Source: Escherichia coli
GTDB taxonomy: Bacteria; Pseudomonadota; Gammaproteobacteria; Enterobacterales; Enterobacteriaceae
Direction: 5' to 3' (one strand)
Assembly: GCF_048403405.1 (NCBI RefSeq)
Contig: NZ_CP183129.1
Length of the DNA: 64,000 nucleotides
Shown here: positions 5,709 to 64,000 of the stretch, piece by piece
How the letters are laid out: the number at the start of each line of letters is the position of its first letter
Numbering within the stretch: the first letter of the stretch is position 1
The notes under the pieces: model-generated
The model's database searches: none
What the model saw: the letters and a program-made list of their open reading frames with translations, nothing else
What the model was told of the DNA's origin: nothing
Program-made: the position numbers and the translations under genes

Positions 5709-5784
5709 GCCCGGATAGCTCAGTCGGTAGAGCAGGGGATTGAAAATCCCCGTGTCCTTGGTTCGATTCCGAGTCCGGGCACCA
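5709..5784 (+). tRNA. pheU: tRNA-Phe (anticodon GAA)
   Basis: 76-nt sequence GCCCGGATAGCTCAGTCGGTAGAGCAGGGGATTGAAAATCCCC...GGTTCGATTCCGAGTCCGGGCACCA with canonical D and T-psi-C arms, anticodon loop tGAAa and encoded CCA end. Confidence 0.97.
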
Positions 5785-35065: not shown

Positions 35066-36157
35066 ATGCGTTTTCTGCGCCGACCAATATCGCTGCGCCA
35101 ACGGCTGATATTGACCATTGGGGCCATTTTGTTGGTGTTTGAGCTGATCAGCGTCTTCTGGCTATGGCATGAAAGTACCGAGCAGATTCAGCTGTTTGAG
35201 CAGGCGCTACGCGACAATCGCAACAACGATCGCCACATCATGCGTGAGATCCGCGAGGCGGTCGCCAGCCTGATCGTCCCCGGCGTCTTTATGGTCAGCC
35301 TGACGCTATTTATCTGCTATCAGGCGGTACGCCGCATCACCCGCCCGCTGGCGGAGCTGCAAAAAGAGCTGGAAGCGCGCACCGCCGACAACTTAACGCC
35401 CATTGCCATTCACAGCGCCACCCTCGAAATCGAAGCGGTGGTTTCGGCGTTAAACGATCTGGTCAGTCGCCTGACCAACACGCTGGATAACGAAAGGTTG
35501 TTTACCGCTGACGTCGCGCACGAACTGCGAACGCCACTGGCGGGGGTGCGTTTGCATCTGGAACTGCTGGCGAAAACGCATCACATTGATGTAGCACCGT
35601 TAGTGGCACGGCTTGATCAGACGATGGAGAGCGTCTCCCAGCTGCTGCAACTGGCGCGTGCCGGACAGTCATTTTCTTCCGGTAATTATCAACATGTAAA
35701 ACTGCTGGAAGATGTCATTCTCCCCTCGTATGACGAACTCAGTACCATGCTCGACCAGCGACAGCAAACCCTGCTATTGCCAGAGAGCGCCGCCGACATC
35801 ACCGTTCAGGGTGATGCAACCCTGCTGCGGATGTTATTGCGAAACCTGGTAGAAAACGCCCATCGTTACAGCCCGCAAGGCAGCAACATTATGATTAAGC
35901 TGCAAGAAGATGGCGGAGCGGTCATGGCCGTTGAAGATGAAGGACCGGGTATTGATGAGAGTAAATGCGGGGAGTTGAGTAAAGCGTTTGTACGTATGGA
36001 CAGCCGTTATGGCGGGATTGGTCTGGGGTTAAGTATTGTCAGCCGCATTACACAGTTGCATCACGGGCAGTTTTTCCTGCAAAACCGGCAAGAGACTTCC
36101 GGCACGCGGGCCTGGGTACGGCTGAAGAAAGATCAGTACGTGGTAAACCAGATATAA
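35066..36157 (+). CDS. basS: sensor histidine kinase BasS (PmrB), 363 aa
   Basis: ORF track starts at TTG 35057; ATG at 35066; two TM segments, H-box (VAHELRTPL) and HATPase (EDEGPGI); matches recalled BasS. Confidence 0.9.
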   Translation: MRFLRRPISLRQRLILTIGAILLVFELISVFWLWHESTEQIQLFEQALRDNRNNDRHIMREIREAVASLIVPGVFMVSLTLFICYQAVRRITRPLAELQKELEARTADNLTPIAIHSATLEIEAVVSALNDLVSRLTNTLDNERLFTADVAHELRTPLAGVRLHLELLAKTHHIDVAPLVARLDQTMESVSQLLQLARAGQSFSSGNYQHVKLLEDVILPSYDELSTMLDQRQQTLLLPESAADITVQGDATLLRMLLRNLVENAHRYSPQGSNIMIKLQEDGGAVMAVEDEGPGIDESKCGELSKAFVRMDSRYGGIGLGLSIVSRITQLHHGQFFLQNRQETSGTRAWVRLKKDQYVVNQI

Positions 36158-36222
36158 AGAAAGCTGCTGACCACCAGCACGCTGAACACGGTAGTTAAAC
36201 TTTCATAAACACGGTTTTTCAT
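36133..36222 (-). CDS. pmrR: small membrane protein PmrR, 29 aa, convergently overlapping basS 3' end
   Basis: Hand translation of the minus strand: strong RBS ggaggagag then ATG giving MKNRVYESLTTVFSVLVVSSFLYIWFTTY*; matches recalled PmrR; overlaps the last 25 nt of basS. Confidence 0.75.
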   Translation of the reverse strand: MKNRVYESLTTVFSVLVVSSFLYIWFTTY

Positions 36223-36330
36223 TGCACTCTCCTCCGTTAACCTGGAGGAGAGTATGCGCGTCAGAGATTAAGTGAACCTTAAGACTTCAATTGGCCTGAT
36301 AAGACAGCGTCTCAGGCCATCCGTTTCAGC

Positions 36331-41937: not shown

Positions 41938-41955
41938 TTGTATTGTGATCGGTAA

Positions 41956-42031
41956 GCCGGATAAGGCGCTCGCGCCGCATCCGGCAACGATGCCGACTGC
42001 CTGATGCGACGCTGACCGCGTCTTATCAGGC
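41956..42031. repeat. BIME (two inverted REP elements) between yjdM and yjdN
   Basis: gccggataaggcgctcgcgccgcatccggc and gcctgatgcgacgctgaccgcgtcttatcaggc REP-family palindromes. Confidence 0.6.
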
Positions 42032-42096
42032 TTCCCTCTCATCTGTATAAATTTCGAACTACACTTAAGTGGCTTCTCTTAACTGAGGTCACCATC

Positions 42097-42672: not shown

Positions 42673-43461
42673 ATGCAAACGATTATCCGTGTCGAGAAGC
42701 TCGCCAAAACCTTCAATCAGCATCAGGCGCTGCACGCGGTTGATCTGAACATTCATCACGGTGAAATGGTGGCTCTGCTTGGGCCGTCGGGTTCCGGCAA
42801 ATCCACCCTTTTACGTCACTTAAGCGGTTTGATTACCGGCGATAAATCTGCCGGTAGCCATATCGAGCTGCTGGGCCGCACAGTCCAGCGCGAAGGCCGC
42901 CTGGCCCGCGATATCCGCAAAAGCCGCGCCAACACCGGCTACATCTTCCAACAATTCAACCTGGTGAATCGCCTGAGCGTACTGGAGAACGTGCTGATTG
43001 GCGCGCTCGGCAGCACGCCATTCTGGCGCACCTGTTTTAGCTACTTCACTCGCGAGCAGAAACAGCGCGCGTTACAGGCGCTAACCCGCGTTGGCATGGT
43101 GCACTTTGCCCATCAGCGCGTTTCCACCCTCTCCGGCGGACAGCAGCAGCGTGTGGCGATTGCCCGCGCGCTGATGCAGCAGGCGAAGGTGATTCTGGCG
43201 GACGAACCCATCGCCTCGCTGGACCCGGAATCAGCGCGCATCGTGATGGACACCCTGCGCGACATCAACCAGAACGACGGCATTACCGTGGTCGTCACGC
43301 TGCATCAGGTGGATTACGCCCTGCGCTACTGCGAACGCATCGTCGCCCTGCGCCAGGGGCACGTCTTCTACGACGGCAGCAGCCAACAGTTTGATAACGA
43401 ACGCTTTGATCATCTCTATCGCAGCATCAACCGCGTCGAAGAGAACGCGAAAGCTGCCTGA
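42673..43461 (+). CDS. phnC: phosphonate ABC transporter ATP-binding protein PhnC, 262 aa
   Basis: Walker [13 protein letters not shown] signature LSGGQQQRV, Walker B ILADEP; matches recalled PhnC. Confidence 0.95.
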
Positions 43462-53995: not shown

Positions 53996-54313
53996 TCAAT
54001 TTCTCCGCTGCTCTATTGCCGTAATCGCCTCCACGTGTTGTTGATGACGACCGCCTTCGTACTGCGCGCCCAGCCACGCATCCACAATCATTTTTGCCAG
54101 TTCGAGGCCAACCACTCGTGAACCAAAAGCCAGTGCAACTTCACTGGCATAATGCGGATAATCAGTGCGCTCTGACGACCTGGTGTCTTTATCAATCACC
54201 TCACTCATTGACCATGAATAAAAGGCTGGCACAGCAACGCAGAATCCTGCGGTGCCAGCGACATGACCGCCCATTGCTCCGGTACGTTTTTTAATAAAAA
54301 ACACCGGTTGCAT
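53996..54313 (-). pseudogene. rpiB: rearranged remnant of ribose-5-phosphate isomerase B (rpiB), 105-codon ORF
   Basis: C-terminal 42 aa (FGSRVVGLELAKMIVDAWLGAQYEGGRHQQ.VEAITAIEQRRN) and an internal block (VIDK.T.SSERTDYPHYAS.VALA) match recalled RpiB, but about 50 central residues are missing and the first 34 residues are unrelated. Confidence 0.5.
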
Positions 54314-58085: not shown

Positions 58086-60136
58086 TGAGCGCGCTCAACT
58101 CCCTGCCATTACCGGTGGTCAGGCTGCTGGCGTTCTTTCATGAAGAGTTAAGCGAGCGGCGACCAGGCCGCGTGCCGCAGACTATGCAACTCTGGGTAGG
58201 CTGCCTGCTGGTGATTCTGATCTCGATGACTTTTGAGATCCCTTTTGTGGCGTTATCACTGGCAGTGCTGTTTTACGGTATTCAGTCGAACGCGTTTTAC
58301 ACCAAATTTGTGGCGATCTTGTTTGTGGTCGCCACGATGCTGGAAATCGCCAGCCTGTTTTTGATCTACAAATGGTCATATGGCGAACCGTTGATCCGAT
58401 TGATCATTGCCGGACCGATCCTGATGGGCTGCATGTTTTTGATGCGCACCCATCGGTTGGGGCTGGTCTTTTTCGCCGTCGCCATTGTCGCTATTTACGG
58501 GCAAACCTTCCCCGCCATGCTCGACTATCCGGAAGTGGTCGTGCGCTTAACCCTGTGGTGTATCGTTGTTGGCCTCTATCCAACCTTGCTGATGACGTTA
58601 ATCGGCGTGCTGTGGTTTCCCAGCCGCACCATTACGCAAATGCATCAAGCGCTTAATGATCGGCTTGATGATGCCATTAGTCACCTGACGGACAGCCTCG
58701 CACCGCTACCCGAAACGCGGATTGAAAGAGAGGCGCTGGCGCTGCAAAAACTCAATGTCTTTTGCCTCGCGGACGATGCCAACTGGCGAACTCAGAGCGC
58801 ATGGTGGCAAAGCTGCGTGGCAACGGTAACCTACATTTACTCGACGCTGAATCGCTACGATCCCACCTCTTTTGCTGATTCTCAGGCAATTATTGAATTT
58901 CGGCAAAAATTAGCCACAGAAATCAACAAACTGCAGCATGCCATTGCCGAAGGTCAGTGCTGGCAAAGCGACTGGCGGATCACTGAAAGTGAAGCGATGG
59001 CGGCACGGGAATGTAACCTGGAGAATATCTGCCAGACATTGTTGCAACTGGGTCAGATGGACCCGAATACGCCGCCAACGCCCGCCACCAAACCGCCATC
59101 AATGGTCGCCGACGCTTTTACCAATCCAGACTATATGCGCTACGCGGTAAAAACGCTGCTCGCCTGTTTGATCTGTTACACCTTCTACAGCGGCGTGGAC
59201 TGGGAAGGCATTCACACCTGTATGCTGACCTGCGTGATCGTCGCTAACCCGAATGTTGGTTCGTCGTATCAGAAAATGGCGCTGCGTTTTGGCGGTGCCT
59301 TCTGCGGTGCAATTCTGGCGCTGTTATTCACGCTACTGGTCATGCCCTGGCTGGACAATATTGTCGAATTGCTGTTTGTGCTGGCACCGATTTTCCTGTT
59401 GGGCGCATGGATTGCCACCAGCTCTGAACGCTCTTCTTATATCGGCACACAGATGGTGGTTACCTTCGCGCTCGCCACGCTCGAAAATGTTTTTGGCCCG
59501 GTGTACGACCTGGTGGAAATTCGCGATCGCGCCCTGGGTATCATCATTGGTACCGTGGTGTCCGCGGTGATTTACACCTTTGTCTGGCCTGAAAGTGAAG
59601 CGCGCACACTGCCGCAAAAACTGGCTGGCGCGCTGGGTATGTTGAGTAAAGTAATGCGGATCCCACGCCAGCAGGAAGTCACGGCTCTGCGCACTTATCT
59701 GCAAATTCGTATAGGTCTGCATGCGGCGTTTAATGCCTGTGAAGAGATGTGCCAACGCGTGGCGCTGGAGCGTCAACTGGACAGCGAAGAACGCGCTTTA
59801 CTGATTGAACGTTCGCAAACGGTTATTCGTCAGGGCCGCGATATTCTTCACGCCTGGGATGCAACCTGGAACTCGGCGCAAGCGCTGGATAACGCACTAC
59901 AGCCGGACAGAGCAGGTCAGTTTGCCGACGCACTGGAGAAATACGCCGCCGGTCTGGCAACCGCACTCAGCCGTTCTCCTCAAATAACGCTTGAAGAAAC
60001 ACCCGCCTCGCAGGCCATCCTGCCGACCTTATTAAAACAGGAGCAACACGTCTGCCAGCTTTTCGCCCGCTTGCCAGACTGGACAGCCCCGGCATTAACG
60101 CCCGCCACGGAACAGGTACAAGGAGCCACGCAATGA
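58085..60136 (+). CDS. mdtO: efflux system inner-membrane component MdtO (SdsQ), 683 aa
   Basis: Start overlaps mdtN stop by 1 nt; FUSC/aromatic acid exporter-like membrane protein; matches recalled MdtO. Confidence 0.93.
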   Translation: MSALNSLPLPVVRLLAFFHEELSERRPGRVPQTMQLWVGCLLVILISMTFEIPFVALSLAVLFYGIQSNAFYTKFVAILFVVATMLEIASLFLIYKWSYGEPLIRLIIAGPILMGCMFLMRTHRLGLVFFAVAIVAIYGQTFPAMLDYPEVVVRLTLWCIVVGLYPTLLMTLIGVLWFPSRTITQMHQALNDRLDDAISHLTDSLAPLPETRIEREALALQKLNVFCLADDANWRTQSAWWQSCVATVTYIYSTLNRYDPTSFADSQAIIEFRQKLATEINKLQHAIAEGQCWQSDWRITESEAMAARECNLENICQTLLQLGQMDPNTPPTPATKPPSMVADAFTNPDYMRYAVKTLLACLICYTFYSGVDWEGIHTCMLTCVIVANPNVGSSYQKMALRFGGAFCGAILALLFTLLVMPWLDNIVELLFVLAPIFLLGAWIATSSERSSYIGTQMVVTFALATLENVFGPVYDLVEIRDRALGIIIGTVVSAVIYTFVWPESEARTLPQKLAGALGMLSKVMRIPRQQEVTALRTYLQIRIGLHAAFNACEEMCQRVALERQLDSEERALLIERSQTVIRQGRDILHAWDATWNSAQALDNALQPDRAGQFADALEKYAAGLATALSRSPQITLEETPASQAILPTLLKQEQHVCQLFARLPDWTAPALTPATEQVQGATQ

Positions 60137-61599
60137 TCAATCGTCAACTTTCACGTCTGCTGTTGTGCAGCATTCTCGGCAGCACGACGCTGATTTCCGG
60201 CTGTGCCCTGGTACGCAAGGATTCTGCGCCTCATCAACAGCTCAAACCTGAACAAATCAAACTGGCCGATGATATTCATCTTGCCAGCTCCGGCTGGCCG
60301 CAGGCGCAGTGGTGGAAACAACTCAATGACCCGCAGTTGGATGCCCTGATCCAACGGACGCTAAGTGGTTCACACACCCTCGCCGAAGCGAAACTGCGGG
60401 AAGAAAAAGCGCAGTCCCAGGCCGATTTGTTAGATGCTGGTTCACAGTTGCAGGTGGCAGCGTTAGGGATGCTCAACCGCCAACGTGTCTCGGCGAACGG
60501 CTTTTTAAGCCCTTATGCGATGGATGCGCCCGCACTGGGGATGGACGGGCCGTACTATACGGAAGCCACAGTCGGTTTGTTTGCCGGATTGGATCTTGAT
60601 TTGTGGGGTGTGCATCGCTCAGCGGTTGCCGCCGCCATTGGCGCGCATAATGCCGCGCTGGCAGAAACCGCAGCAGTAGAGCTATCGCTGACCACGGGCG
60701 TAGCGCAGCTTTATTACAGTATGCAGGCCAGCTATCAGATGCTCGATCTGTTAGAACAAACTCGCGATGTGATTGATTACGCGGTAAAAGCGCACCAGAG
60801 TAAAGTGGCGCACGGTCTGGAAGCGCAAGTGCCTTTCCACGGCGCGCGGGCACAGATTCTGGCGGTCGATAAACAAATTGCTGCCGTTAAAGGGCAAATC
60901 TCCGAAACGCGAGAATCTCTGCGCGCATTGATTGGCGCGGGAGCCAGCGATATGCCGGAGATCAGACCGGTGGCATTACCGCAAGTCCAGACCGGCATTC
61001 CGGCGACACTCTCTTATGAGTTGCTCGCCAGACGCCCGGATCTGCAAGCCATGCGCTGGTATGTTCAGGCGTCATTAGATCAGGTGGATTCCGCGCGGGC
61101 GTTGTTCTACCCGAGCTTTGATATCAAAGCGTTTTTCGGCCTGGATTCTATCCACCTGGATACCTTATTCAAAAAAACCAGTCGCCAGTTCAACTTTATC
61201 CCAGGTCTGAAATTGCCGCTGTTTGACGGTGGACGGTTGAATGCCAATCTCGAAGGCACTCGCGCCGCCAGCAACATGATGATTGAACGTTACAACCAGT
61301 CAGTGCTGAATGCGGTGCGCGACGTTGCCGTCAACGGCACGCGTCTGCAAACGCTCAACGACGAGCGAGAGATGCAGGCTGAACGCGTGGAAGCAACGCG
61401 CTTCACCCAGCGCGCTGCCGAGGCCGCCTATCAGCGCGGCTTAACCAGCCGCTTACAGGCCACCGAAGCCCGGTTGCCAGTGCTTGCCGAGGAGATGTCA
61501 TTACTGATGCTGGACAGCCGCCGGGTGATCCAAAGCATTCAGTTGATGAAATCGCTGGGCGGCGGGTATCAGGCAAGTCCCGTCGTCGAGAAAAAATAA
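60133..61599 (+). CDS. mdtP: efflux system outer-membrane factor MdtP (SdsP), 488 aa
   Basis: ATGA overlap with mdtO; lipoprotein signal (LLLCSILGSTTLISGC); TolC/OprM-like; matches recalled MdtP. Confidence 0.93.
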   Translation: MINRQLSRLLLCSILGSTTLISGCALVRKDSAPHQQLKPEQIKLADDIHLASSGWPQAQWWKQLNDPQLDALIQRTLSGSHTLAEAKLREEKAQSQADLLDAGSQLQVAALGMLNRQRVSANGFLSPYAMDAPALGMDGPYYTEATVGLFAGLDLDLWGVHRSAVAAAIGAHNAALAETAAVELSLTTGVAQLYYSMQASYQMLDLLEQTRDVIDYAVKAHQSKVAHGLEAQVPFHGARAQILAVDKQIAAVKGQISETRESLRALIGAGASDMPEIRPVALPQVQTGIPATLSYELLARRPDLQAMRWYVQASLDQVDSARALFYPSFDIKAFFGLDSIHLDTLFKKTSRQFNFIPGLKLPLFDGGRLNANLEGTRAASNMMIERYNQSVLNAVRDVAVNGTRLQTLNDEREMQAERVEATRFTQRAAEAAYQRGLTSRLQATEARLPVLAEEMSLLMLDSRRVIQSIQLMKSLGGGYQASPVVEKK

Positions 61600-61607
61600 A
61601 ATGTCTG

Positions 61608-61680
61608 CCGCGTGATGGCTGTCACGCGGTATTTCGTTTCGTCACGTCAAAACTGACGACAGCCTGTTTTTCGTCAGAGT
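61608..61680 (+). promoter_or_regulatory. mdtP terminator hairpin and fdhF upstream activating region (candidate FhlA binding repeats)
   Basis: Hairpin ccgcgtgatggctgtcacgcgg followed by repeated tttcgtc / gtcacg / tgacgac motifs about 60-120 bp upstream of the sigma-54 promoter. Confidence 0.45.
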
Positions 61681-61729
61681 TTTGAATAAATAGTGCCCGT
61701 AATATCAGGGAATGACCCCAAATAAAATG

Positions 61730-61746
61730 TGGCATAAAAGATGCAT
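61730..61746 (+). promoter_or_regulatory. sigma-54 (-24/-12) promoter of fdhF
   Basis: TGGCAT-aaaaga-TGCAT matches the TGGCAC-N5-TTGCA consensus, with GG and GC 12 bp apart. Confidence 0.75.
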
Positions 61747-61796
61747 ACTGTAGTCGAGAGCGCGTATGCGTGATTTGATTAACTGGAGCGAGACCG

Positions 61797-63944
61797 ATGA
61801 AAAAAGTCGTCACGGTTTGCCCCTATTGCGCATCAGGTTGCAAAATCAACCTGGTCGTCGATAACGGCAAAATCGTCCGGGCGGAGGCAGCGCAGGGGAA
61901 AACCAACCAGGGTACCCTGTGTCTGAAGGGTTATTATGGCTGGGACTTCATTAACGATACCCAGATCCTGACCCCGCGCCTGAAAACCCCCATGATCCGT
62001 CGCCAGCGTGGCGGCAAACTCGAACCTGTTTCCTGGGATGAGGCACTGAATTACGTTGCCGAGCGCCTGAGCGCCATCAAAGAGAAGTACGGTCCGGATG
62101 CCATCCAGACGACCGGCTCCTCGCGTGGTACGGGTAACGAAACCAACTATGTAATGCAAAAATTTGCGCGCGCCGTTATTGGTACCAATAACGTTGACTG
62201 CTGCGCTCGTGTCTGACACGGCCCATCGGTTGCAGGTCTGCACCAATCGGTCGGTAATGGCGCAATGAGCAATGCTATTAACGAAATTGATAATACCGAT
62301 TTAGTGTTCGTTTTCGGGTACAACCCGGCGGATTCCCACCCAATCGTGGCGAACCACGTAATTAACGCTAAACGTAACGGGGCGAAAATTATAGTCTGCG
62401 ATCCACGCAAAATTGAAACCGCGCGCATTGCGGACATGCACATTGCACTGAAAAACGGCTCGAACATCGCGCTGTTGAATGCGATGGGCCATGTCATTAT
62501 TGAAGAAAATCTGTACGACAAAGCATTCGTCGCTTCCCGTACAGAAGGCTTTGAAGAGTATCGTAAAATCGTTGAAGGCTACACGCCGGAGTCGGTTGAA
62601 GATATCACCGGCGTCAGCGCCAGTGAGATTCGTCAGGCGGCACGGATGTATGCCCAGGCGAAAAGCGCCGCCATCCTGTGGGGCATGGGTGTAACCCAGT
62701 TCTACCAGGGCGTGGAAACCGTGCGTTCTCTGACCAGCCTCGCGATGCTGACCGGTAACCTCGGTAAGCCGCATGCGGGTGTAAACCCGGTTCGTGGTCA
62801 GAACAACGTGCAGGGTGCCTGCGATATGGGCGCGCTGCCGGATACGTATCCGGGATACCAGTACGTGAAAGATCCAGCTAACCGTGAGAAATTCGCCAAA
62901 GCCTGGGGCGTGGAAAGCCTGCCAGCGCATACCGGCTATCGCATCAGCGAGCTGCCGCACCGCGTAGCGCATGGCGAAGTGCGTGCCGCGTACATTATGG
63001 GCGAAGATCCGCTGCAAACTGACGCGGAGCTGTCGGCAGTACGTAAAGCCTTTGAAGATCTGGAACTGGTTATCGTTCAGGACATCTTTATGACCAAAAC
63101 CGCGTCGGCGGCGGATGTTATTTTACCGTCAACGTCGTGGGGCGAGCATGAAGGCGTGTTTACTGCGGCTGACCGTGGCTTCCAGCGTTTCTTCAAAGCA
63201 GTTGAGCCGAAATGGGATCTGAAAACGGACTGGCAAATCATCAGTGAAATTGCCACTCGTATGGGTTATCCGATGCACTACAACAACACCCAGGAGATCT
63301 GGGATGAGTTGCGTCATCTGTGCCCGGATTTCTACGGTGCGACTTACGAGAAAATGGGCGAACTGGGCTTCATTCAGTGGCCTTGCCGCGATACTTCAGA
63401 TGCCGATCAGGGGACTTCTTATCTGTTTAAAGAGAAGTTTGATACCCCGAACGGTCTGGCGCAGTTCTTCACCTGCGACTGGGTAGCGCCAATCGACAAA
63501 CTCACCGACGAGTATCCGATGGTACTGTCAACGGTGCGTGAAGTTGGTCACTACTCTTGCCGTTCGATGACCGGTAACTGTGCGGCACTGGCGGCGCTGG
63601 CTGATGAACCTGGCTACGCACAAATCAATACCGAAGACGCCAAACGTCTGGGTATTGAAGATGAGGCATTGGTTTGGGTGCACTCGCGTAAAGGCAAAAT
63701 TATCACCCGTGCGCAGGTCAGCGATCGTCCGAACAAAGGGGCGATTTATATGACCTACCAGTGGTGGATTGGTGCCTGTAACGAGCTGGTTACCGAAAAC
63801 TTAAGCCCGATTACGAAAACGCCGGAATACAAATACTGCGCCGTGCGCGTCGAGCCGATCGCCGATCAGCGCGCCGCCGAGCAGTACGTGATTGACGAGT
63901 ACAACAAGTTGAAAACTCGCCTGCGCGAAGCGGCACTGGCGTAA
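61797..63944 (+). CDS. fdhF: formate dehydrogenase H, selenocysteine-containing (in-frame UGA = Sec140), 715 aa
   Basis: Two ORF-track ORFs (61797-62216 and 62265-63944) are in the same frame across TGA at 62214-62216; N-terminal 4Fe-4S cysteine motif CPYCASGCKINL; matches recalled FdhF. Confidence 0.93.
62214..62260 (+). other. selenocysteine UGA codon plus downstream SECIS stem-loop
   Basis: TGA followed by cacggcccatcggttgcaggtctgcaccaatcggtcggtaatggcg, which can form the SelB-binding hairpin. Confidence 0.8.
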
Positions 63945-63958
63945 TACAGTCCTTTCTA

Positions 63959-63987
63959 CAGCCTCCTTTCGGAGGCTGTTTTTTTAT
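63959..63987 (+). terminator. rho-independent terminator downstream of fdhF
   Basis: Hairpin cagcctcc-tttc-ggaggctg followed by tttttttat. Confidence 0.75.
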
Positions 63988-64000
63988 CCATTCGAACTCT

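Follow-up and report, generated by a model that had tools for sequence, protein, structure and literature searches.

The region at positions 61400-64000 of the window, that is, of the whole 64,000-nucleotide stretch of DNA analyzed, is the Escherichia coli locus of fdhF, the already-known gene of formate dehydrogenase H (FDH-H), and it almost certainly comprises fdhF with a sigma-54 promoter, an FhlA enhancer and a UGA codon 140 that is recoded through a SECIS to yield one selenoprotein. This explanation is based on the sequence, the reading frame, the match to a SECIS model, cross-species constraint, identity to a characterized locus and published sigma-54 occupancy, and none of the results obtained contradicts it. 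The region showed 100% identity to E. coli chromosomes in which it is annotated as mdtP-fdhF, and the fdhF region, annotated as fdhF adjoining mdtP, was found in 5419 of 5426 complete genomes. The interval singled out by the first-pass annotation is the 5′ control region and recoding site of E. coli fdhF. The selenocysteine (Sec) codon, SECIS, sigma-54 promoter and FhlA enhancer of this gene are textbook elements described decades ago. For comparison, the 80 closest Enterobacteriaceae loci were used, with alignments of 81 distinct sequences; all features described below lie on the plus strand unless otherwise indicated.

A sigma-54 promoter is recognized ahead of a gene by a GG and a GC spaced by 12 bp, with TGGCAC-N5-TTGCW as the context. 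Both this spacing and this context were found upstream of fdhF, where the motif TGGCATAAAAGATGCA at 61730-61745 places GG at 61731-61732 and GC at 61743-61744 within the -24/-12 element TGGCAT-AAAAGA-TGCAT (61730-61746). The earlier description of TGGCAT-N6-TGCAT as a near-consensus -24/-12 element was borne out by the literature, as GTGGCATAAAAGATGCA, the same as the sequence here, is the sigma-54 ChIP-seq site for fdhF (b4079), and sigma-54 occupancy of the promoter is taken from that ChIP-seq work on this exact motif (PMC4591121). Supportively, the orthologous Salmonella site TGGCATAAAACATGCATA is bound, sigma-54 dependent and up-regulated 29-fold (PMC3844500). TGGCA-N7-TGCA was present in 80 of the 81 sequences, and this bare pattern matched the 64 kb once against 1.13 matches expected, showing no excess over chance; because the motif alone is not diagnostic, the promoter call rests on its position, its conservation and the published ChIP-seq. 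With the RpoN weight matrix of PMC7658346, the fdhF promoter scored 13.6 bits and ranked third in the window behind two intragenic sites, and no sigma-54 sites within mdtO or the phn genes were found among those published in PMC4591121. By standard sigma-54 geometry, transcription would start at 61755-61757, about 12 nt past the C of the -12 GC, and the predicted start would give a 5′ UTR of about 41 nt. Birkmann and Bock, in 1989, reportedly mapped the fdhF promoter.

An enhancer is expected some 70-150 bp before the -24/-12 element, and conserved repeats were found in this range, at -118 to -79. The putative enhancer core TTCGTCACGTCAAAACTGACGA (61638-61659), a candidate FhlA site by its conservation, spacing and hexamer clustering, contains the hexamers TCGTCA (61639), ACGTCA (61644) and inverted TGACGA (61654), as well as a palindrome CGTCA-N4-TGACG (61645-61658) centred at about -104.5 from the predicted start. 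The core was at least 95% conserved across the 81 distinct sequences, and CGWCACGTCA occurred in 80 of the 81, located 90 bp before TGGCA in 70 of 80. A second element, GTTTTTCGTCAG (61666-61677), embeds a direct TCGTCA copy (61671-61676) at about -85 from the predicted start; it could be aligned across about 20 genera, with positions 61670-61676 at least 95% conserved. The two parts share the direct repeat D3, in which TTTCGTCA appears twice, 32 bp apart.

The first-pass annotation had described these repeats as TTTCGTC/TGACGA-like motifs of an enhancer-binding protein site, and the array itself stood up in its conservation, its fixed spacing and its shared hexamer, whereas the repeat unit did not. 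TTTCGTC is located at 61637-61643 and 61669-61675, and TCGTCA/TGACGA at 61639, 61654 (minus strand) and 61671. The TTTCGTC 7-mer was not enriched window-wide (9 found vs. 9.55 expected) and a further TTTCGT at 61632-61637, the first copy, was not conserved outside Escherichia, so that TTTCGTC was rejected as the unit and replaced by TCGWCA, of which the 197 bp upstream of fdhF hold three copies against 0.26 expected (P = 0.0025). The sequence comparison indicates that the conserved unit is TCGWCA/TGWCGA rather than TTTCGTC. The 14-nt FhlA matrix of PMC7658346 found its best local match in the fdhF enhancer core, and was set aside as evidence because 8.15 bits and rank 95 in the window are too weak. 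Both PMC11291172 and PMC11841067 state that fdhF is controlled by FhlA, the former being a secondary source for the binding of FhlA upstream of fdhF. From the literature on the identical K-12 sequence, FhlA would be expected to bind here and formate to induce the gene. Schlensog 1994 and Leonhartsberger 2000 reportedly describe the original FhlA footprints.

An element of another kind occupies the start of the interval given in the first-pass annotation. Positions 61606-61631, which correspond to the inverted repeat I2 and begin 7 nt past the mdtP stop codon, form a terminator-like hairpin with an 11-pair stem, including 6 G-C pairs, and the T-rich tail TTTCGTTTCG; this lies outside the repeat array, is no fdhF control element in itself, has flanks that are not conserved outside Escherichia, and probably insulates fdhF from mdtNOP read-through. 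The presence of this hairpin, the inclusion of the first TTTCGT copy in its T-rich tail and the lack of TTTCGTC enrichment would all suit an explanation in which the upstream repeats are by-products of the mdtP terminator or REP-like intergenic sequence and fdhF is transcribed from another promoter, but this is highly improbable, given that conservation of the block 61638-61677 reached at least 95% among genera with unrelated sequence upstream of it, that its distance to the -24 element is fixed at 90 bp, that TCGWCA recurs in other FhlA-dependent K-12 control regions, and that no sigma-70-like promoter was found in 61400-64000 while sigma-54 occupancy has been published.

Besides the sigma-54 promoter and the FhlA enhancer, three less familiar features were observed in the control region. 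A GTCAC (61621-61625), sharing bases with the 3′ arm of the mdtP hairpin, precedes the enhancer core by about two helical turns and may be an extra weak activator contact; of 80 sequences, 69 have GTCA[CT] at 18-21 bp before the core, 40 of them at an offset of 20, and positions 61620-61624 were at least 80% conserved. Between the enhancer and the -24 element is a spacer block, CCGTAATATCAGG followed by CCCC/CCCAC and then an A-tract (61697-61720), which is partially conserved across genera and may be a bending or architectural element. The consensus for IHF is WATCARNNNNTTR. An IHF site in this block was considered and is not claimed, because by eye the consensus match was poor, with one mismatch in E. 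coli and a worse fit in other genera, and was not conserved. Near the mRNA 5′-end, GCGC-GUAU-GCGU (61760-61771) can form a small hairpin whose pairing is kept across genera by different but still pairing sequences, e.g., GCGCA-AA-UGCGC, ACGCAU-UU-AUGCG and CGCGC-AA-GCGCG; it is absent from Enterobacter, Lelliottia and Kosakonia, which have 35-40 nt from the -12 element to the ATG, and may act as a 5′ stabilizing stem-loop. As far as could be checked, these three features, conserved across genera, are not explained by sigma-54, FhlA or SelB, and a rather speculative idea, which we hold to be unlikely, is that the spacer block, the covarying 5′ hairpin and the GTCAC are undescribed inputs to fdhF expression; they could, for instance, include a site for an architectural protein or a further regulator, and an element acting on mRNA stability or translation. 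Further downstream, the ribosome-binding region AACTGGAGC (61781-61789), with GGAG at 61785-61788 located 8 nt before the ATG, was at least 95% conserved in the 81 sequences, and at the other end of the gene an intrinsic terminator, ACAGCCTCCTTTCGGAGGCTGT followed by TTTTTTTATCC (63958-63986), with a 9-pair stem and a T7 run, lies 14 nt past the stop codon.

The coding sequence of FDH-H occupies 61797-63944 as one frame of 715 codons, in which the only internal stop is the TGA at 62214-62216, codon 140. A mechanical list of open reading frames divides it there into a 139-aa piece (61797-62216) and a 559-aa piece (62265-63944) in the same frame, and the start of the latter is merely the first ATG past the TGA, the frame being open directly 3′ of it; coordinates and translation therefore agree with the earlier statement that a naive call splits fdhF at this codon into two pieces of one frame. 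RefSeq annotates a single fdhF CDS. The product carries the Pfam domains Fe4S4 (PF04879), Molybdopterin (PF00384) and Molydop_binding (PF01568), a set that indicates the molybdopterin oxidoreductase architecture of the formate dehydrogenase alpha family, and all 715 of its 715 residues aligned to the FDH-H structures PDB 1AA6, 1FDO, 2IV2 and 7Z0T (1667 bits), the 1AA6 chain having a non-standard residue X at position 140. The assignment of the gene as fdhF is confirmed by these domains, this full-length match and the 100% nucleotide identity; within formate hydrogenlyase, its product is the subunit that contains molybdopterin and selenocysteine.

The frame, the X at position 140, the conservation of the codon and the literature concur in the decoding of UGA codon 140 as selenocysteine. 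The codon is followed by a C, giving the context UGAC, and Sec140 of E. coli fdhF is named in PMC4513850 and PMC10945757. Each of the 80 Enterobacteriaceae loci has TGA here. Furthermore, the synonymous codon entropy of codons 141-152 was 0.19 bits against a median of 0.87, the lowest of any 12-codon window among the first 357 codons, and only the third positions of P143 and Q150 vary freely within it, the former being part of a pair in the lower stem that is not preserved and the latter changing U-A to U-G and back only. These results indicate that codons 141-152 are under selection as RNA, in addition to that on the encoded protein.

The RNA element in question was identified through a covariance model. 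Positions 62209-62263, which include the UGA in the lower stem, matched Rfam SECIS_2 (RF01988) over its full length (model positions 1-55 of 55) at 87.1 bits (E = 8.5e-19), above the curated gathering score of 70, and a gathering-threshold scan of the whole window recovered the same match. A single hairpin with the apical loop GGUC is the predicted fold of 62214-62260, at -14.9 kcal/mol; this energy is unexceptional (z = -0.94; equalled or bettered by 27 of 200 shuffles) and was dropped as a test of the SECIS because it does not discriminate. The minimal apical stem-loop predicted to be bound by SelB, GGUUGCAGGUCUGCACC (62228-62244), spans nt 15-31, with the U of UGA as nt 1. Its loop GGUC is at 62235-62238 (nt 22-25), with G23 at 62236 and U24 at 62237; the bulged U17/U18 of the apical stem corresponds to 62230/62231, and in the minimum free energy structure nt 15-17 and 19-21 pair with nt 26-31, leaving U18 unpaired. 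The published element is a 17-nt upper stem-loop of nt 15-31, located 11 nt from the UGA, with a bulged U17 and the loop residues G23/U24 (PMC8659212). The fold, when compared with the canonical fdhF SECIS as the first-pass annotation had proposed, reproduced the published placement of the loop GGUC and of the bulged U, and together with the SECIS_2 score this upholds the claim of a SelB-type stem-loop 3′ of the TGA. In the alignment, 96.6% of cells form standard pairs, compared with 20-47% in slid controls. The columns of the apical stem-loop (nt 15-31) were invariant in the 81 sequences, the lower-stem pair nt 12-34 was unpaired in 10 of 19 distinct sequences, and no compensatory base-pair changes were found in the SECIS among the 81 sequences, covariation being uninformative there because the element is almost invariant. 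SelB binding and selenium-dependent readthrough are established for the identical K-12 sequence (PMC4513850, PMC10945757), and on that literature SelB would be expected to bind and selenocysteine to be inserted here.

That TGA 62214 is a genuine stop in a split or decaying fdhF, leaving a fragment of 139 aa and perhaps another of 559 aa with its own start, has a negligible probability even though the mechanical call yields exactly these pieces and hairpin stability alone is not significant, since the pseudogene reading is ruled out by the one 715-residue chain of the solved structures with its non-standard residue at 140, by the TGA at codon 140 in all 80 closest loci with the frame intact on both sides, and by the strongest synonymous constraint of the gene's first half falling on the 12 codons after it, and is further opposed by the SECIS_2 score above the gathering threshold and the single RefSeq CDS.

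For the one recoded gene, we propose a model that joins these elements. Transcription of fdhF would start from the sigma-54 promoter at 61730-61746. Sigma-54 promoters cannot open unaided. The activating enhancer would lie some 80-120 bp upstream, at 61638-61677 and possibly reaching 61621, and its direct and inverted TCGWCA hexamers would be bound by the formate-sensing activator FhlA. The mRNA would be translated through UGA codon 140, where the SECIS just 3′ of it (apical part 62228-62244) would recruit SelB-GTP and Sec-tRNA(Sec) to the ribosome, and selenocysteine would therefore be inserted in place of RF2 termination; one selenoprotein of 715 residues is predicted to result, and no separate pieces of 139 and 559 aa.

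Bacterial selenocysteine recoding has its founding example in fdhF, which is also a standard model of activation by sigma-54 and an enhancer, and the recoded gene and its control signals were recognizable from raw sequence alone. For annotation, the lesson is that a naive ORF caller splits the gene in two. Neither the hairpin energy nor the bare -24/-12 pattern was statistically distinctive for the fdhF elements; these were identified by model-based evidence (Rfam) and comparative evidence, namely synonymous constraint and the phylogenetic footprint.

Compared with known systems, the locus is the same as K-12 fdhF (b4079), with mdtP upstream and, in a matching strain, yjcO downstream. The UGA, SECIS, 5′ UTR, -24/-12 element and enhancer core are identical to those of K-12; 26 SNPs distinguish the two across 61400-64000, none in any functional element, with one in the enhancer-promoter spacer (61721, A vs. 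C), and V390A is the sole amino-acid difference in FDH-H. Among RNA elements, Rfam SECIS_3 (RF01989) and its relatives likewise have an in-frame UGA and, after it, a hairpin whose apical loop contains G/U, but SECIS_3, with its gathering score of 63, gave the window only 35.8 bits, which indicates that this SECIS belongs to the enterobacterial fdhF-type model and not to the SECIS_3 family. Among control regions, those of hycA-hypA, hydN-hypF and hyf resemble fdhF in combining a -24/-12 promoter with upstream TCGWCA/TGWCGA hexamers, and the promoters of the FhlA/sigma-54 regulon are all formate inducible through FhlA (PMC11841067). In K-12, TCGWCA occurs three times in the hycA-hypA intergenic region (0.28 expected) and twice upstream of hydN (0.20 expected), with a single exact copy and no significant enrichment upstream of hyf. 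The regulon promoters differ in hexamer number, orientation and spacing, and also in the hexamer variant, which is mainly TCGTCA at fdhF and mainly TCGACA at hyc/hyp.

The fdhF gene, encoding formate dehydrogenase H, occupies 61797-63944 (+) as one frame of 715 codons, in which translation revealed a sole internal stop, the TGA at 62214-62216 (codon 140). The split at this TGA that the first-pass annotation had described, with both pieces in one frame, was reproduced in a mechanical ORF list, where 61797-62216 (139 aa) and 62265-63944 (559 aa) appear as separate pieces sharing a frame; the longer piece starts at the first ATG 3′ of the TGA, and the frame is already open right after the TGA. 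RefSeq lists mdtP and then fdhF as a single CDS ("formate dehydrogenase subunit alpha"), and an intrinsic terminator lies 3′ of fdhF at 63958-63986. The translated product carries the Pfam domains Fe4S4, Molybdopterin and Molydop_binding and aligned across 715 residues to the PDB formate dehydrogenase H entries 1AA6, 1FDO, 1FDI, 2IV2 and 7Z0T, which have a non-standard residue, X, at position 140. The entire window is E. coli chromosome from aspA through fdhF, and region 61400-64000 was found in 5419 of 5426 complete E. coli genomes, with 100% identity to several complete chromosomes. The sequence features, their conservation and the identity to the characterised locus are direct observations, and no aspect of the locus is new.

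Codon 140 was compared in 80 loci from 80 species-level Enterobacteriaceae genomes (protein identity 92-100%), and was TGA in 80/80. Over the first 357 codons synonymous codon entropy averaged 0.83 bits, and the lowest 12-codon window was codons 141-152, at 0.19 bits (window median, 0.87), a constraint that acts on the RNA independently of the protein. Although the ORF list breaks the gene in two, a true stop at 62214-62216 and a split fdhF are excluded by the full-length PDB match with X140, the invariant TGA and this synonymous-diversity minimum. One enterobacterial-type fdhF came from contig CACSKA010000007.1 of an assembly attributed to Chryseobacterium sp. 18061, where it would not be expected in a member of the Bacteroidota. 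This contig encodes a protein 95% identical to that of E. coli and carries an enterobacterial SECIS; the public assembly is probably mislabelled or contaminated.

The SECIS hairpin proposed downstream of the UGA was borne out by both model matching and folding. Sequence 62209-62263 gave a full-model match to Rfam SECIS_2 (RF01988; 87.1 bits, gathering score 70), and only 35.8 bits with the related model SECIS_3 (threshold 63). At minimum free energy, 62214-62260 adopts a single hairpin. Numbered from the U of UGA, its helix joins nt 15-17 and 19-21 to nt 26-31, leaving U18 as a bulge and nt 22-25 as the loop GGUC. This is how the SECIS has been described: its upper stem-loop spans 17 nt (nt 15-31), lies 11 nt from the UGA, and is contacted by SelB at a bulged U17 and at loop G23/U24 (PMC8659212). 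A failure to fold, named beforehand as grounds for abandoning the assignment, would have been a weak test in either direction, because hairpin stability alone is unremarkable (-14.9 kcal/mol, z = -0.94; 27 of 200 shuffled sequences are at least as stable). Across the 80 loci the 55-nt SECIS showed 97% column-by-column identity and the apical stem-loop (62228-62244) was invariant. Within codons 141-152 only Pro143 and Gln150 have variable third positions; the Gln150 change turns a U-A pair into U-G, and Pro143 sits in the lower-stem pair nt 12-34 (62225/62247), which is A-U in the Rfam model; of 19 distinct enterobacterial sequences, 10 have U-U or C-U there and leave it unpaired. This pair is under no selection, in contrast to the invariant apical stem, which agrees with the reported dispensability of the lower stem (PMC8659212). 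No pairs changed on both sides were found in the SECIS of this set, so that covariation was uninformative.

The near-consensus sigma-54 -24/-12 element, TGGCAT-AAAAGA-TGCAT, was located at 61730-61746, with GG (61731-61732) and GC (61743-61744) spaced by 12 bp within TGGCATAAAAGATGCA. Its support comes not from the bare pattern, which is at chance level (1 match vs 1.13 expected in 64 kb), but from ChIP-seq and conservation: sigma-54 ChIP-seq in E. coli assigns this very 17-mer, GTGGCATAAAAGATGCA, to fdhF (b4079; PMC4591121), and TGGCA-N7-TGCA occurs in 80 of 81 distinct upstream sequences. The orthologous Salmonella site, TGGCATAAAACATGCATA, is bound by sigma-54, and Salmonella fdhF shows 29-fold sigma-54-dependent up-regulation (PMC3844500). 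The sole altered -24 element among the 81, TGGTAT for TGGCAT, is that of Raoultella sp. BIGb0138, whose ribosome-binding site reads AACGGGAGC in place of AACTGGAGC. By an RpoN matrix (PMC7658346) the fdhF promoter ranked third in the window, after two intragenic sites, 42916-42931 (-) and 60042-60057 (-) (TGGCGCGGCTTTTGCG and TGGCAGACGTGTTGCT), the latter antisense within mdtO; the main text of the ChIP-seq paper (PMC4591121) does not mention mdtO or those phn genes that were looked up in it. A consensus scan of 61400-64000 found no sigma-70-like promoter. From standard sigma-54 promoter geometry we infer a transcription start near 61756, leaving a leader of ~41 nt with a conserved Shine-Dalgarno region at 61781-61789.

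Several copies of TTTCGTC, TCGTCA or TGACGA lie at 61632-61677. In a MAFFT alignment of the 81 distinct upstream regions, flanks 5′ of ~61620 were unrelated from genus to genus, and 95-100% conservation was found at 61638-61650 (TTCGTCACGTCAA), 61654-61659 (TGACGA) and 61666-61677 (GTTTTTCGTCAG). The motifs reported earlier as TTTCGTC/TGACGA-like are present in this region, but what is conserved is a hexamer, TCGWCA. The first TTTCGT copy belongs to the T-rich tail of a terminator-like hairpin directly after mdtP (61606-61631), at the 5′ end of the interval first described, and is not conserved. The hexamer is found at 61639 as TCGTCA (TCGACA in many genera), at 61644 as ACGTCA, at 61654 inverted as TGACGA and at 61671 again as TCGTCA; the second and third copies form the palindrome CGTCA-N4-TGACG. 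The core CGWCACGTCA occurs in 80 of 81 sequences and lies exactly 90 bp 5′ of TGGCA in 70/80, a fixed phasing as would be expected of an enhancer having to face its promoter. TCGWCA, present three times upstream of fdhF (0.26 expected), is over-represented elsewhere in K-12 too, with three copies in the hycA-hypA intergenic region (0.28 expected) and two upstream of hydN (0.20 expected), and occurs once upstream of hyfA; fdhF, hyc/hyp, hydN and hyf are members of the FhlA-controlled formate regulon (PMC11841067, PMC11291172). The conservation, the fixed promoter distance and the shared hexamer thus support well the suggested enhancer-binding protein site. Because the repeats are conserved in genera whose flanks are unrelated, and keep a fixed distance from the promoter, they cannot be mere debris of a terminator or intergenic sequence. 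FhlA is the known activator of fdhF, and individual bases of the repeats are putative FhlA contacts; an FhlA matrix (PMC7658346) scored the palindrome weakly (8.15 bits, rank 95).

Three further small conserved elements were found, to which no described factor could be matched. GTCAC at 61621-61625 (+), which in E. coli contributes to the 3′ arm of the hairpin after mdtP, stands 18-21 bp 5′ of the enhancer core in 69/80 species amid unrelated sequence. A spacer block between enhancer and -24 element, 61697-61720 (+), reads CCGTAATATCAGG ... CCCC/CCCAC followed by an A-tract, is conserved in ~20 genera and, by eye, matches the IHF consensus poorly. Near the inferred mRNA 5′ end, 61760-61771 (+) forms a hairpin (GCGC-GUAU-GCGU) whose counterparts in other genera differ in their stems yet pair (GCGCA-AA-UGCGC, ACGCAU-UU-AUGCG, CGCGC-AA-GCGCG); it is absent from the shorter-leader genera Enterobacter, Lelliottia and Kosakonia.

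In the proposed mechanism, whose biochemistry is taken from the cited work on the characterised fdhF, cytoplasmic formate build-up would activate FhlA, which would be bound at the hexamer cluster ~80-120 bp upstream and, at the expense of ATP, convert the closed sigma-54 complex at 61730-61746 to the open form. As the ribosome elongates, the SECIS hairpin (11 nt beyond the UGA) would bind SelB-GTP-Sec-tRNA(Sec) and bring it to the UGA, where RF2 competes, with a reported efficiency of 30-40% (PMC4513850), yielding a 715-residue selenoenzyme.

Elsewhere in the window, Rfam gathering-level matches were obtained for the sRNA STnc630 (36126-36291, -; 183 bits), naRNA4/CssrE (41955-42032, +; 87.5 bits) and tRNA-Phe (GAA) (5709-5784, +). 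Between yjcS and yjdP, where K-12 has alsK-alsE-alsC-alsA-alsB-alsR and full rpiB, only a 318-bp rpiB remnant was found (~53996-54313, -); the D-allose operon is thus missing from this strain background. Compared with K-12 MG1655, 61400-64000 differs by 26 SNPs, one of which changes an amino acid of fdhF (V390A), and the only promoter-region SNP, 61721 A/C, lies at the edge of the spacer block. Because none of the 26 falls in the enhancer core, -24/-12 element, 5′ UTR, UGA or SECIS, experimental results for K-12 fdhF carry over to this identical sequence.
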